Source of the DNA: a virus
Direction: 5' to 3' (one strand)
DNA length: 64,000 bases
Virus record (IMG/VR): IMGVR_UViG_3300032093_000042
Span: 1 to 64,000 of that record
The number at the start of each line of letters is the position of its first letter. Position 1 is the first letter of the stretch. Of this stretch, positions 8,661 through 26,537 are shown piece by piece. The translations under genes were made by a program, and so were the position numbers. Under the pieces are notes generated by a model. That model did no database searches, was not told the DNA's origin, and saw nothing but the letters and a program-made list of their open reading frames with translations.

Positions 8661-8804
8661 TATTAAACAAAGATAGACACGTAAGCAAAGCATTCGGATA
8701 ATGCGCCCTCCGGTTGGGAGACTGAGTTCAATTCTCAGATGCTTACAGGGAACATATCGCTATACTACAAAAGTAATGTGAGTGAAATCCTTAATTGTTT
8801 GATA
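8661..8804 (+). ncRNA. GAUAGA/GAAC/GUGAAAUC junction motif RNA, copy A (contains a mini-cloverleaf)
   Basis: GATAGAC 8672, GGAAC, GTGAAATC 8782; insert GTAAGCA/TGCTTAC with D-, anticodon- and T-like (CTGAGTTCAATTCTCAG) hairpins. Confidence 0.65.
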
Positions 8805-8867
8805 TTTTAAACTTTTTTTAACTTTTTTGTTGACTTTCCTGAATCTCTGGGGTATAGTATTTCCACG

Positions 8868-9128
8868 ATGAATATCAAAGAATACTTGGATAAACTTGAA
8901 CAGACAAAGCAGAGTCTACTGTCTCTGAATCTACCGGACAATACTCCGATTGTCGATACCCCTGATATGGGTTGTTTGACTCCAATATCTAAAACATCTA
9001 TTAAGTTTGAAGTTAAAGATGTTTACAAATACAATTTGTGTTATTATCTTTATTCACACGTTTGTGATAAAGAACTGACTGAAAAACAAATGGTTGTGAT
9101 TTTGTCTGAACATTATACACGGAACTAA
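8868..9128 (+). CDS. hypothetical protein
   Basis: promoter-ccacgATG start. Confidence 0.7.
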   Translation: MNIKEYLDKLEQTKQSLLSLNLPDNTPIVDTPDMGCLTPISKTSIKFEVKDVYKYNLCYYLYSHVCDKELTEKQMVVILSEHYTRN

Positions 9129-9402
9129 AAAATATCTAAATAAAATAATATCGTAGAAATATAAAAACACTAATTATTTAGCGCTGAAAGCGTCTAAAAA
9201 GTGCTTGACTTTCTAAAATTTCCTGATATTTTATAAAAAATAAAATATGAAAACTAAAATTAAGAACCGCAAAACTTGGGGCACTTTGAAGCCTATTACC
9301 AAACGTATTGAGTCTCTTAAGATTTACAAGCGCAGTAAGAATAAGTTTAATTATTCAAATTATAGCTGGGGAGATCTTAATTAATTTAAAATAATAATAA
9401 AT

Positions 9403-9693
9403 ATGTCTGATATTGATCCTGAACTGCAAGCAGAACAAACTCAAGATGCTAAGTATCTACAAGAGCTTAATCACTATGTAAACACTCTTTCAGCTCCTTC
9501 AGCAGAATCCGTAGCGCTTTATAGATCAAAGCTTAGTATGCTTGAAGATATTCATAATGAAATTCGATCCAAGTATCCTGAATTTATGCCTGTATATGAT
9601 TGTTCAAAGGAAGCTGAACTAAATCAAGCATTGGGTAAATATCAAGAACATACTTATAGTCTCAGCAGCCGAGACATGAGTGCAGAAAAGTGA
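9403..9693 (+). CDS. hypothetical protein
   Basis: ORF track. Confidence 0.65.
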   Translation: MSDIDPELQAEQTQDAKYLQELNHYVNTLSAPSAESVALYRSKLSMLEDIHNEIRSKYPEFMPVYDCSKEAELNQALGKYQEHTYSLSSRDMSAEK

Positions 9694-9739
9694 AAAAACC
9701 CGTTGACTTTAGCCAGAAATCCTGTAGACTGTATTCCAC

Positions 9740-10309
9740 ATGAAGAAACTCCAAAAAGAATTCACCGCTAACTATGATCGGGTTGGTATGAATCGTTTTG
9801 TTCAACTCCGCAAGGAAAATGGAGTTGCCATCTATGAACGATTCAACACTGATGATACCCATCGTACTTATGAGGTGTTCATTGTGAAGGTTGTACCCAA
9901 GGGTGCTCCTCTTCCTAATGGCAAGACTGTAGAGGAGTCGTATGAACAGTATCCGGGTGCCAATGCCTTTGGTAAGACTGCTTATGATTGTCGTTCACTG
10001 GCTCGGGCAGAGGAACGATTTGATCAGTTGGTACAGAAGGTCAAGGATAGTGCTGAAGCTAAGGAAGAGTCTATTAAAACTGGTAAGCGTAATCGTGGTA
10101 AGCGTGGTACTAATAAGATCAATGTTAGTGTACCTGAAAAGGATAGTAAGTTTACTATGAAAATGCTTATCACTTCTACTGGTCTAACTCAGCCTGTGTT
10201 GTTTAGTATTGTTAAGTCTTGGATGAATAGTGGTATTGTTAAGATCAATGGATACATTAAGTCCGAAGGTGGCCGAGGTCGTCCTAGTATTGAATATGTC
10301 GTGGTGTAA
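9740..10309 (+). CDS. hypothetical protein with C-terminal winged-helix-like DNA-binding region
   Basis: FTMKMLITSTGLTQP...GIVK...GGRGRPSIEY. Confidence 0.6.
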   Translation: MKKLQKEFTANYDRVGMNRFVQLRKENGVAIYERFNTDDTHRTYEVFIVKVVPKGAPLPNGKTVEESYEQYPGANAFGKTAYDCRSLARAEERFDQLVQKVKDSAEAKEESIKTGKRNRGKRGTNKINVSVPEKDSKFTMKMLITSTGLTQPVLFSIVKSWMNSGIVKINGYIKSEGGRGRPSIEYVVV

Positions 10310-10333
10310 GTAAACATACAAATAGTTACATTA

Positions 10334-10369
10334 ACCAGTTAGTGGATAATACCGCTAACTGGTTTTTTT
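10334..10369 (+). terminator. intrinsic terminator
   Basis: AACCAGTTAGTGG-ataata-CCGCTAACTGGTT then T run. Confidence 0.8.
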
Positions 10370-10483
10370 GAATATATTTTCAGATTACTTATAAAAATGC
10401 TTGCCAACCTTCCTCAAACCTATCTCGAAAAATTCGAAAAAACTGCTTGAATCTGCCCCAAACTCTGGTAAATTGATTTTGTC

Positions 10484-10831
10484 ATGAACGACATCAATAC
10501 TAACTCTAACGTCACCGCCACCTCCACCAAGATCACCGCCAAGGTTGGTCGGCCTGCCATGTCGCTGAAGCTGATCCTCAACAAGACCTTCAGCCTCAAG
10601 GATCTGCAGGCTCTCAATCCCGATGTCAAGCCCGTCACCATTCGGGCCGCTGTTCTTCGGGGTCTCGAGAATGGCCGATTCACCAAGCTGAATCGTACTG
10701 TTCGATCGGGTCGCAAGGGCAAGCCCGCCTCGCTCTTCATCAATACCAAGGTCTACGAGGCTAACCTTCGTAACCTCGCCAAGTCCAAGGTTACTGTCAA
10801 TGTCGCTGAGACCGATGCTGTGACCGCCTAA
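10484..10831 (+). CDS. basic putative DNA-binding protein
   Basis: GRPA and RKGKPA motifs, wHTH-like spacing; GC-richer codon use. Confidence 0.6.
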   Translation: MNDINTNSNVTATSTKITAKVGRPAMSLKLILNKTFSLKDLQALNPDVKPVTIRAAVLRGLENGRFTKLNRTVRSGRKGKPASLFINTKVYEANLRNLAKSKVTVNVAETDAVTA

Positions 10832-10896
10832 TAAACCAACCACAACTACAAACCCCGCTTGACTTTCAAATCAAGCGGGGTTATTCTTTTACCGTT

Positions 10897-24896: not shown

Positions 24897-24902
24897 TATA
24901 AC

Positions 24903-24976
24903 GCGGGTATGATGTAATGGTAGCCTGACGCACTTCCAATGCGTATGTGAGAATTCGATTTTCTCTACCCGCTCCA
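24903..24976 (+). tRNA. tRNA-Gly(UCC)
   Basis: loop CTTCCAA, U73, CCA. Confidence 0.92.
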
Positions 24977-25038
24977 ATTTTTTAAATCAATTAAAATAAA
25001 ATTGAACTTTCATTTGATTCTTACATATTTATGTATGT

Positions 25039-25722
25039 ATGAATAAAAAACGATCAAGTATTATATGGAAAATATCAGATGCTGAATTTACTAAATTGGT
25101 AAAAAATAGCAGAACGATGTCTGAATTGTTGAGACACTTTGGTATGGAAAATAAAGGTGGTAATTATAAAACTTGTAAAAAAAGAATTTTAAAATTAAAT
25201 CTTGATACCAATCATTTTCTAAAAAGAATAGATTCAAGTAATTTTACTAGAAAAGTCACAAAAAATATATTACTGGAACGATTAACTATTAATTCAAATT
25301 GTAATAGATCAAATTTAAAAAAATGGTTGGTTGAACATGATATCATAAAATATGAGTGTTCTAATTGTAAAAATGATGGTAATTGGTGTAATAAAAAATT
25401 AACTCTACAACTAGAACATAAAAATGGAATATCTAATGATAATAGAATTGTAAATTTAACATTTTTATGTCCTAACTGTCATAGTCAAACTAACACATAT
25501 GCTGGAAGATCATTAAATAAACATAAAATTAGACCGTCGGATATTAATCCTAATTGGAGAAGTAATCCTAAATATAATATCAGAAAAGTAACTAGACCAA
25601 CAAAAGAAATATTAGAACAAGAAATAAAGAATAATACTATGGTCGATTTAGGAAAAAAATATAATGTATCTGATAATGCTGTAAGAAAATGGTGTAAGAG
25701 TTATGGTATCGATATAAGTTAA
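25039..25722 (+). CDS. free-standing HNH homing endonuclease
   Basis: CSNC...LQLEHKNGISNDNRIVNLTFLCPNCHSQT, C-terminal HTH. Confidence 0.9.
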   Translation: MNKKRSSIIWKISDAEFTKLVKNSRTMSELLRHFGMENKGGNYKTCKKRILKLNLDTNHFLKRIDSSNFTRKVTKNILLERLTINSNCNRSNLKKWLVEHDIIKYECSNCKNDGNWCNKKLTLQLEHKNGISNDNRIVNLTFLCPNCHSQTNTYAGRSLNKHKIRPSDINPNWRSNPKYNIRKVTRPTKEILEQEIKNNTMVDLGKKYNVSDNAVRKWCKSYGIDIS

Positions 25723-25729
25723 TTTTAAC

Positions 25730-25804
25730 GGGGGATTAGTATAATGGCTATTATGTCTCGCTTTGAACGAGAAGAAGTTGGTTCGACTCCAGCATCCCCT
25801 GCCA
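25730..25804 (+). tRNA. tRNA-Gln(UUG)
   Basis: loop CTTTGAA, G73, CCA. Confidence 0.9.
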
Positions 25805-25811
25805 ATTTCAT

Positions 25812-25850
25812 CGGAATGTAATGTCAATAGTAGACGGCCTGGTTTGGAAC
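25812..25850 (+). pseudogene. 5' half of tRNA-Pro(UGG), truncated after the anticodon loop
   Basis: CGGAATG-TAATGTCAATAGTAGACGG-CCTGG-TTTGGAA-C; no 3' half found. Confidence 0.7.
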
Positions 25851-25897
25851 TTGAATCAAAAATAATCGTTTAGACTATACTAATACTATTTATTAGT

Positions 25898-26437
25898 ATG
25901 GATTATACAGACATCGTAAAACACTCAAAATCAAAAAGCGATTTTGCTAAAAATTTAGGATATAAATTTTATAACGGAAAAACAAGTGCGATTATAAATG
26001 GAATTGTTAAAGAACACAATCTTGATATATCACATTTTAAATCATCTGGTGGAGGTCATAACATAAAATATTCGTTTGTTGAGGAAAAATGCCCGTGTTG
26101 TAACAAAATGTTTACAACACAATCTGGGGGGAATAATAGAAAACAAACTTGTAGTCATGCTTGTTCTAATAAATTTTTTGCATCAAAAAGAGTAACAGAT
26201 GATAACATAAAACACTATACTACATTGTGTTTTAGACATCATAAAAAACAATGTATAATTTGTGGAGAACAAAATATAGTGGCTGTACATCATTTTGATG
26301 AGAACAGAAATAATAATGTTCCAGAAAATTTGATTCCAATGTGTCCGACACATCATCAATATTGGCACAGCAAATACAAACATTTAGTTTACGATAAAGT
26401 AGTAGAATACCGAAACACATTTTTAAAAAAGATTTGA
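25898..26437 (+). CDS. HNH endonuclease with Zn-finger
   Basis: CPCC..TCSHAC; CIICG...VHHFDENRNNNVPENLIPMCPTHH. Confidence 0.9.
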   Translation: MDYTDIVKHSKSKSDFAKNLGYKFYNGKTSAIINGIVKEHNLDISHFKSSGGGHNIKYSFVEEKCPCCNKMFTTQSGGNNRKQTCSHACSNKFFASKRVTDDNIKHYTTLCFRHHKKQCIICGEQNIVAVHHFDENRNNNVPENLIPMCPTHHQYWHSKYKHLVYDKVVEYRNTFLKKI

Positions 26438-26496
26438 CTATTTGTGTATAGAATTATAGCATGCTACCTATTAGCTGGTAGAGGAGACTGAAGTTG

Positions 26497-26537
26497 ACGA
26501 GATAGACATATGGAACAAAGTATAGTGAAATCCTCGT
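26497..26537 (+). ncRNA. junction motif RNA, copy E (minimal; inside a larger fold 26435-26557)
   Basis: ACGAG-ATAGAC-ATAT-GGAAC-AAAGTATA-GTGAAATC-CTCGT. Confidence 0.6.

Follow-up and report, generated by a model that had tools for sequence, protein, structure and literature searches.

The DNA analysed here, hereafter the window, covers the opening 64 kb of a virus record of 104,908 bases (IMG/VR record IMGVR_UViG_3300032093_000042; G+C content 33.7%), whose completeness is estimated by CheckV at ∼36%. All of its tRNA genes, 23 in number, and its tmRNA gene are on the plus strand, and in this tRNA/tmRNA region lie five plus-strand copies of a small RNA module. Every copy is ordered P1 / GAUAGAY / P2 / RGAAC / P3 / GUGAAAUCC / P1', where P1, P2 and P3 are paired elements and P1' is the returning strand of P1. 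A reading made from the sequence alone (the sequence-only reading) had placed five copies of a junction motif at these sites. A covariance model (R1), built from 18 minimal copies that all come from other phages, recovered exactly these five in the window and matched nowhere else in it, and a regular-expression scan for the three conserved blocks over the full 104,908-base record found no sixth copy and no copy on the minus strand. GTGAAATC alone occurs eight times against 2.4 expected, five of the eight being the five copies, and by our own estimate the full composite pattern would yield ∼0.003 matches by chance.

Copy A (8664–8798, plus strand; 19.8 bits with R1 and 27.1 bits with a refined model, R2; core blocks 8672–8790) has an outer P1 of 10 bp, formed by 8661–8670 with 8795–8804, with a few unpaired bases between P1 and the core. 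Its P2 (∼8681–8746) folds as a cloverleaf-like tRNA body lacking an anticodon. In it, an acceptor-like stem of 7 bp encloses D-like and T-like hairpins, the latter with the loop UUCAAUU, and between the two stands a short hairpin whose loop is 5 nt. More tRNA-like pieces are seen immediately 5' of this copy (7673–8551 and 8600–8660, plus strand), such as the T-arm-like AAGGUUCGAUUCCUU at ∼8634–8648; because they lie directly upstream, copy A appears to close a block of tRNA look-alikes.

Copy B (16225–16303, plus strand; 29.5 bits with R1, 38.8 bits with R2; core 16233–16295) is built on the P1 pairing ACUG/CAGU, and its P2 folds as a plain 10-bp hairpin; a tRNA-Asn gene begins 22 nt downstream. 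Copy C (17752–17885, plus strand; R1 30.6 bits; core 17760–17877) starts 9 nt past a tRNA-Phe gene and has two hairpins in P3. Its P2 contains a T-arm-like sequence, GGGG/UUCGAUU/CCC(U), read directly from the sequence at ∼17776–17792; the minimum free energy (MFE) fold of the copy did not recover this hairpin and was no better than those of shuffled sequences (z = −0.24). Copy D (18450–18567, plus strand; R1 24.0 bits; core 18458–18559) closes P2 with a U-A pair (GAUAGAU ... AGAAC). This P2 holds a D-like hairpin, a stem-loop and a T-like hairpin (18510–18528), its P3 is a 6-bp hairpin, and AAAAU-CCA-AUUU follows directly after P1'. The minimal form of copy E (26493–26541, plus strand; R1 55.1 bits; core 26501–26533) has the P1 pairing ACGAG/CUCGU. 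The P1 pairs that the sequence-only reading had listed for copies B to E are correct, and so are the inserts it described: a cloverleaf-like body in copy A, D- and T-like hairpins in copy D and, as sequence if not in the MFE fold, a T arm in copy C. The module thus often carries tRNA-derived parts, as that reading had claimed. These parts are passengers in copies A, C and D; in copy E they form the outer context.

Architecture, covariation and distribution of the module

The module consists of a P1 helix whose closing pair is G-C and, on top of it, a compact junction. Three junction strands, A-N-A-G-A, G-A-A and U-G-A-A-A-U-C, are near-invariant together with the closing pairs of P2 (Y-R) and P3 (C-G), while P1, P2 and P3 otherwise vary or bear large inserts. 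In its minimal form the module amounts to 28 nt of junction on a single helix, with P2 and P3 reduced to one C-G pair each that encloses 3–9 nt. The three-way junction proposed from the sequence alone therefore stands as a topology and falls as a set of three stable helices, since the minimal P2 and P3 are single pairs.

Covariation was examined in 66 distinct copies aligned to the model, retrieved with a search pattern that admitted all four P2-closing combinations. The innermost variable pair of P1 is AU in 32 copies, GC in 16, UA in 14 and CG in four, and is unpaired in none; the next-outer pair is formed in 64 of 66 copies by five pair types. P2 is closed by C-G in 51 copies, by U-A in 13 and by another combination in one, so that the C-G to U-A switch noticed in copy D is real and general across phages. 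The first pair of P3 is C-G in all 66. The covariation score is 0.563 as compared with 0.167 for shuffles (none of 500 shuffles reached 0.563), and slid partners gave at most 0.19. The length of P1 ranges from 4 to ∼18 bp. On these results the module is a true family of structured RNAs, in which covarying stems carry an invariant core rich in purines, as had been proposed. The conservation lies in three separate blocks linked by covarying stems, a pattern that fits selection on RNA structure rather than on a contiguous DNA site, and a mobile DNA element or a promoter as the cause of the conservation was rejected.

R2 picked up additional copies with rare changes in the core. The P1-closing G-C is replaced by A-U in one variant, in which both sides have changed. 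The second base of the first strand is U, G or A; nearly all copies have AUAGA, one variant has AGAGA and another AAAGA. One orthologue of copy B carries an additional U ahead of GAAAUCC. A subfamily of five copies (locus labels with coordinates: L016:1644–1707, minus strand; L041:531–594, plus; L061:135–199, plus; L028:6516–6580, minus; L049:3637–3699, plus) has a conserved P2 loop, G-AGUA-GGGCAC-GAA, which shows the AGUA/GAA pattern of the bulged-G (sarcin-ricin or loop E) motif and presumably resembles the GAGUAGGGAAC stretch of Escherichia coli 5S rRNA. A conserved hairpin with a U-rich loop of 7–8 nt stands 5' of these copies, and ...AAAA-CCA-UUU 3' of them.

The sequence-only reading had suggested a covariance model and a search of phages; alongside the covariation described above, such a search yielded at least 118 IMG/VR stretches that match the three-block pattern (exact blocks, short spacers). 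Among the matches listed, 55 of 120 have at least three (3–7) contiguous P1 pairs flanking the core, in unrelated sequences, and ∼20 further IMG/VR matches come from one conserved coding region in which P1 is absent. The same pattern gave at least 121 matches in 596 Gb of prokaryote genomes, and 106 of the 121 among the matches listed have no or one P1 pair. About three of these listed prokaryote matches look real, one of which has exactly the sequence of the module on phage contig L065. The family thus belongs almost exclusively to phages, and the chance background is visibly different.

The carriers are dozens of unrelated, uncultured phages, and the G+C content of the copies spans 28–63%. 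Complete carrier genomes of 40, 100, 209, 248 and 463 kb hold one or two copies each; the module is a small building block with a near-invariant core that is common to unrelated phages across this range of sizes. BLAST searches of GenBank phages returned no match, and one extra search gave only chance matches at E = 8. The closest cultured relatives, judged by the baseplate protein, are Microcystis phage Mel-JY01 and Flavobacterium phage immuto 2-6A; no copy of the module was found in either of them, nor in LR756508 or PA5oct.

The five copies have no match in Rfam 15, either at gathering thresholds or at E ≤ 5 over positions 8000–28500, and a known RNA family was rejected on these grounds. 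At 60 related loci Rfam reported nothing beyond tRNA, tmRNA, GOLLD, RNase P RNA, abiF and int-alpA. Neither the Rfam tRNA model (RF00005) nor ARAGORN calls the minimal copies, which have no cloverleaf of their own. Consistent with the earlier statement that the motif could not be matched to a familiar family, the module was found in no RNA catalogue or paper among those searched. It is a genuine and unusually well-conserved phage RNA module.

Genomic company and tRNA-like outer context

The module is linked to genes for tRNAs, tmRNA, RNase P RNA and the large phage RNA GOLLD. A tRNA gene lies on the same strand within 500 nt of 46 of the 67 P1-supported copies, and none lies on the opposite strand; for matches without any flanking P1 pair, a same-strand tRNA within 500 nt was seen in only 3 of 35. 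A frequent layout places the module 12–40 nt 5' of a tRNA. Because this distance leaves no room for a promoter, many copies are probably internal to transcripts. A tmRNA is found near the module in the window and at L003, L009, L032, L046 and L100. On L007, a 265-kb phage contig, a full-length bacterial class-A RNase P RNA (3063–3440, minus strand; 170 bits) is located within a tRNA array, ∼370 nt from a copy of the module.

GOLLD RNA (RF02032) was identified with the Rfam model, at 194–218 bits, at L096:2148–2668 (minus strand), L063:62–594 (plus), L029:1835–2311 (minus) and L019:1359–1879 (plus). The motif loci include four GOLLD-bearing lineages (L019, L029, L063/L115 and L096), and in every one the module starts 5–16 nt past the end of the GOLLD model, and the P1 of these copies is 8–12 bp long and different in each lineage. 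Three GOLLD RNAs retrieved independently of the motif (L250, L252 and L258) all lack the module at their 3' ends, and two of the three carry a terminator-like hairpin and a U tract where it would be; the notion that every GOLLD carries the module was rejected accordingly. No GOLLD was found on searching 151 genomes from the family to which G041 belongs (Lactobacillus sp., the genome holding L175), nor in four others.

Where no tRNA is nearby, the module is intergenic and lies at the borders of gene modules, for example ahead of a gene for a head-tail adaptor or a terminase small subunit. Ten flanking open reading frames of the tRNA-less loci have no protein family in common. With PHROGs assignments of terminase small subunit, head-tail adaptor, MazG-like protein, glucosyltransferase or nothing at all, a conserved neighbour protein was rejected.

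The outer context of several copies is itself tRNA-like. MFE folding and RNAalifold place copy E within a tRNA-shaped RNA of 128 nt (26435–26562, plus strand). The acceptor stem of this RNA is 7 bp long and its 3' end is U-CCA; a D-like hairpin is present, and the anticodon-like arm has a loop of 7–8 nt that is not conserved. Where a T arm would stand there is an interrupted arm of ∼12 bp, with copy E at its tip. The RNAalifold analysis of eight related phages supports 28 pairs, nine of them with compensatory changes, which affect the acceptor stem as well as two of the arms, anticodon-like and long; all eight RNAs end in ...UCAUCCA. Because the 'anticodon' loop is not conserved, this RNA cannot be a decoder.

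In a tRNA the acceptor and T stems together make 12 bp. At three loci from two lineages (L064, L092 and L024) the module caps a 12-bp helix that is followed directly by ACCA or UCCA, and in L064 a terminator-like hairpin comes next after the N-CCA. This minihelix-like form is seen at these three loci and partly in the copy-E RNA; most copies have a P1 of 4–8 bp and no adjacent CCA. The signature CCA[AU]0-2UUU marks the 3' end of 273 of the 546 tRNA genes at these loci. It occurs within 50 nt downstream of the module in 15 of 59 distinct copies, as compared with 4 of 59 upstream, 4 of 59 on the reverse strand and a random-window background of 3.4%. The context points away from a free-standing ribozyme or riboswitch and towards a building block of RNAs that resemble tRNAs and mature as tRNAs do, because the module occupies the T-arm position of a CCA-ending cloverleaf, caps 12-bp helices with N-CCA and is followed by tRNA gene-end signatures. 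Three things not previously connected are linked by the module: anticodon-less tRNA look-alikes, CCA-ending minihelices and the 3' end of GOLLD.

A candidate tRNA surrogate and its alternatives

Phage tRNA islands hold large RNAs of unknown function, such as GOLLD and ROOL, and have increasingly been tied to an arms race over host defences that target tRNA. The reading we favour, to which we assign a probability of roughly 0.35, is that the module is a self-folding, T-loop-containing surrogate of tRNA for RNase P and the 3' trimming enzymes, one that would punctuate and stabilise phage non-coding RNAs and display passengers. Presumably transcribed along with the phage tRNAs, it would use P1 as a stand-in for the stacked acceptor and T stems. 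The G-UGAAAUC-C strand, together with purines of the other two strands, may form a T-loop-type knob resembling the tRNA elbow, while the A-N-A-G-A and G-A-A strands could form tandem G.A/A.G pairs on P2, as in a kink-turn, along with stacking purines. The tRNA-handling enzymes of host or phage, RNase P first and then the 3' trimming and CCA-adding enzymes, would treat the module as a tRNA, so that it could cut apart, end and stabilise the non-tRNA RNAs of phage tRNA operons, for example non-decoding tRNA look-alikes and GOLLD RNA. P2 and P3 would serve as display sites for passenger domains.

Two features of the core suggest this surrogate for the tRNA acceptor, T arm and elbow: a T-loop-like strand and strands capable of tandem G.A pairs. 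G-UGAAAUC-C has the length of a T loop and, as in the tRNA T loop, its first loop base is U, the fourth and fifth are A, and G and C close it. The covarying structure, the near-restriction to phages, the linkage to tRNA genes, the tRNA-like outer context, the position after GOLLD and the RNase P RNA near one copy also speak for the reading; a T-loop- or elbow-like fold, recognition by RNase P and a punctuating or stabilising role are inferred. A partner present in hosts generally would fit, because there is no shared flanking family and complete genomes of 40–463 kb have only one or two copies.

Among known systems, tRNA-like processing and mimicry elements come closest. They include tRNA minihelices, rnaC and rnaD (stable RNAs of the T4 tRNA cluster) and mascRNA-type tRNA-like 3' elements, which RNase P cuts. 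Like them, the module is a compact acceptor-like helix with a structured cap, is located where it would be co-transcribed with other RNAs, and in some cases has the 12-bp plus N-CCA form or sits in a CCA-ending cloverleaf; like the tRNA-like 3' elements, it borders a large non-coding RNA (GOLLD) on its 3' side. Unlike them, its junction resembles no part of tRNA other than the one T-loop-like strand, and the Rfam tRNA and mascRNA models do not match it.

Several observations weigh against a tRNA surrogate. A stack of 12 bp is what RNase P and the CCA-adding enzyme measure, whereas the length of P1 is not fixed (4 to ∼18 bp), and the clean 12-bp form with N-CCA is limited to the two lineages (three loci) described above. 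Loop positions 2 and 3 are G and A rather than the U and C of tRNA T loops, and the Rfam tRNA model fails to match the module. The module-bearing arm of the copy-E RNA is ∼12 bp long as compared with 5 bp for a T arm, and a nearby CCA is missing in most copies. The extreme invariance of the 15 junction bases would fit catalysis or a specific protein partner equally well.

If the module is a portable tRNA surrogate, it would explain how phages mature and stabilise such RNAs and would offer a 45-nt tag of practical use for bacterial RNA processing. A wider proposal, which we regard as tentative, is that the module is a new functional RNA class with an activity of its own, either a self-cleaving ribozyme or a minimal portable RNase P recruitment signal (a 45-nt tRNA surrogate), used by many phage lineages to cut out or cap GOLLD, tRNA decoys and other non-coding RNAs. 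Were it instead a ribozyme or a protein handle, it would be a new class of either.

A protein handle of the Y RNA type is the first of the alternatives, though in our view an unlikely one: the invariant junction would dock a host or phage protein and so bring it together with passengers such as tRNA look-alikes and sarcin-ricin-loop-like hairpins. Kink-turns are common protein sites, and G/AUA/GA-C ... G-GA/A has the sequence pattern of a kink-turn, with a 3-nt loop and tandem G.A/A.G pairs. In general form (G/A-N-A/G-A/C ... G/G-A/A) the pattern fits the core, but the non-bulged strand is interrupted by P3 and seven bases. The combination of a constant module with a tRNA-like domain parallels YrlA RNA (RF02553; Chen et al., 2014; PMC4201824), which is likewise modular and found in phages. 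The Ro-binding motif of Y RNAs, GNCGAAN0-1G (GGUCCGA-like), stands near the 5' end (PMC4201824), whereas neither the core nor P1 of the aligned copies contains GNCGAAN0-1G, and the Rfam YrlA model does not match the module. A TROVE/Ro60 gene (PF05731) was absent from the record itself and from 40 carrier records, of which seven are at least 90% complete and most are fragments; control genomes were positive. A link to Y RNA and Ro60 was rejected on both counts, and the lack of a protein family common to the flanking genes also speaks against the handle.

The module could alternatively be a 3'-end cap or boundary, to which we give a rather small chance. The junction on P1 would block 3'-to-5' exonucleases, aid termination or both, doing the job of a terminator hairpin for non-coding units. 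Promoter-like sites follow two of the window copies within ∼35 nt: TTGACT-17-TATAGT at 8830–8858 (plus strand), 32 nt past copy A, and a similar site at 26576–26604 after copy E, both found as consensus matches in sequence only. Promoter-like sequences were also noted by eye after copies C and D, and copies A, C, D and E may therefore lie at the 3' ends of transcription units. In the same direction point the placement of the module directly after GOLLD in four lineages, the terminator-like hairpins with U tracts at that place in two other GOLLDs, and U-rich tracts behind P1' in several copies. However, the many copies 12–40 nt 5' of a tRNA, where a promoter would not fit, must then be internal to transcripts; in the window this applies to copy B, 22 nt ahead of tRNA-Asn. 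An intrinsic terminator is a G+C-rich hairpin with a small loop and a U tract; a terminator scan called none of the five copies as such, and U tracts after P1' are present in some copies only. A plain hairpin would suffice for a cap without the 15 invariant junction bases. The cap overlaps with the tRNA-surrogate reading and is compatible with it.

Of the promoter-like matches in this region, the best (16225–16254, plus strand; TTGACA-18-TATAGT with TG) overlaps copy B, its −35 element falling at the 5' side of P1 and its −10 element within P2. The L010 orthologue of copy B (1644–1724) retains TTGACA and has TATAAT. A transcript started here would hold the 3' half of the module only.

We consider it improbable that the module belongs to a new class of small self-cleaving ribozymes acting on the transcripts of phage tRNA operons. 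The invariant junction, the variable covarying stems and the tolerance of large inserts would suit a ribozyme, and theta ribozymes are reported to adjoin phage tRNAs (PMC10879173). The hammerhead core has a CUGANGA box between stems I and II and GAAA between stems II and III, with A-U as the first pair of stem III (PMC10085705). Like it, the module has a three-stem junction topology with tandem G-A beside one stem and G-A-A on the return strand: ...A-G-A [P2] G-A-A [P3]... repeats the G8-A9 and G12-A13-A14 strands beside hammerhead stem II (PMC10085705), and U-G-A follows P3. Unlike it, the strand between P1 and P2 is A-N-A-G-A rather than CUGANGA and the first pair of the third stem is C-G rather than A-U. 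A permuted hammerhead (PMC10085705) was rejected for lack of CUGANGA, and the Rfam ribozyme models gave no match even at E ≤ 5. In many copies P2 and P3 shrink to one base pair, which is unusual for active sites, and a cut in the junction of the copy-E RNA would separate the conserved CCA-ending acceptor strand from the body.

A receptor for the tRNA elbow is very improbable. On this reading two T loops, one from A-N-A-G-A and one from U-G-A-A-A, would interlock as they do in T-box stem I, RNase P and the ribosomal L1 stalk, and the pair would stack on the elbow of a tRNA that is either nearby or embedded. The double T-loop module that docks on elbows has a first loop AGNNA, with the G at position 2 among its six defining bases, and a second loop UGNNA (2013; PMC3664808). 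The invariant UGAAA agrees with UGNNA and, with its preceding G, is identical to T-loop 2 of the L1 stalk (E. coli 23S rRNA 2167–2171); the module also has a second purine-rich strand of five bases, one natural variant, AGAGA, fits AGNNA, and the module keeps company with tRNAs. In almost all copies, however, the first strand is AUAGA and the defining G is thus replaced by U, the helices are joined in a strand topology unlike all three known cases, and some copies occur in phages without a nearby tRNA. R1 did not match E. coli 23S rRNA at the stalk (best score 6.9 bits, at another site), and the shared GAUAG is out of register with T loop 1 of the stalk; an L1-stalk mimic was rejected for these reasons, and of the resemblance just the UGAAA T-loop likeness holds up. 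A small-molecule aptamer, which falls within the remaining probability, is unlikely because the module has no expression platform.

Neighbouring RNAs and other features

GOLLD, ROOL and Drum are structured phage RNAs found near tRNA islands, with functions that are unknown (PMC12286853; Rfam). The module shares their genomic niche and follows GOLLD directly in four lineages, but at ∼45 nt it is far smaller than these RNAs (400–800 nt) and lies outside the Rfam GOLLD model. GUGAAAUCC does not occur in those supplementary files of PMC12286853 that were examined.

Two further Rfam families were seen on carrier contigs. An abiF RNA motif (RF03085; 40.8 bits) is located between the tRNA genes of a phage tRNA array at L018:7598–7634 (minus strand), and an int-alpA RNA (RF02996) is found on another carrier contig at L025:4472–4538 (minus strand).

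In the window, the Rfam tRNA model aligns end to end over 142 nt at 16834–16975 (plus strand; 40.2 bits), a site that ARAGORN does not call; since the model spans the whole of it, this is probably a tRNA-like gene with an insert of ∼70 nt. A near-identical pair of promoter-like sites occurs at 5154–5190 and 6430–6466 (plus strand; TTGACT, 17 nt, then TAAAGT or TAGGAT). The spacer of both contains CTGAAATCC, which is one base off the 3' block of the module, a likeness that is probably a coincidence.

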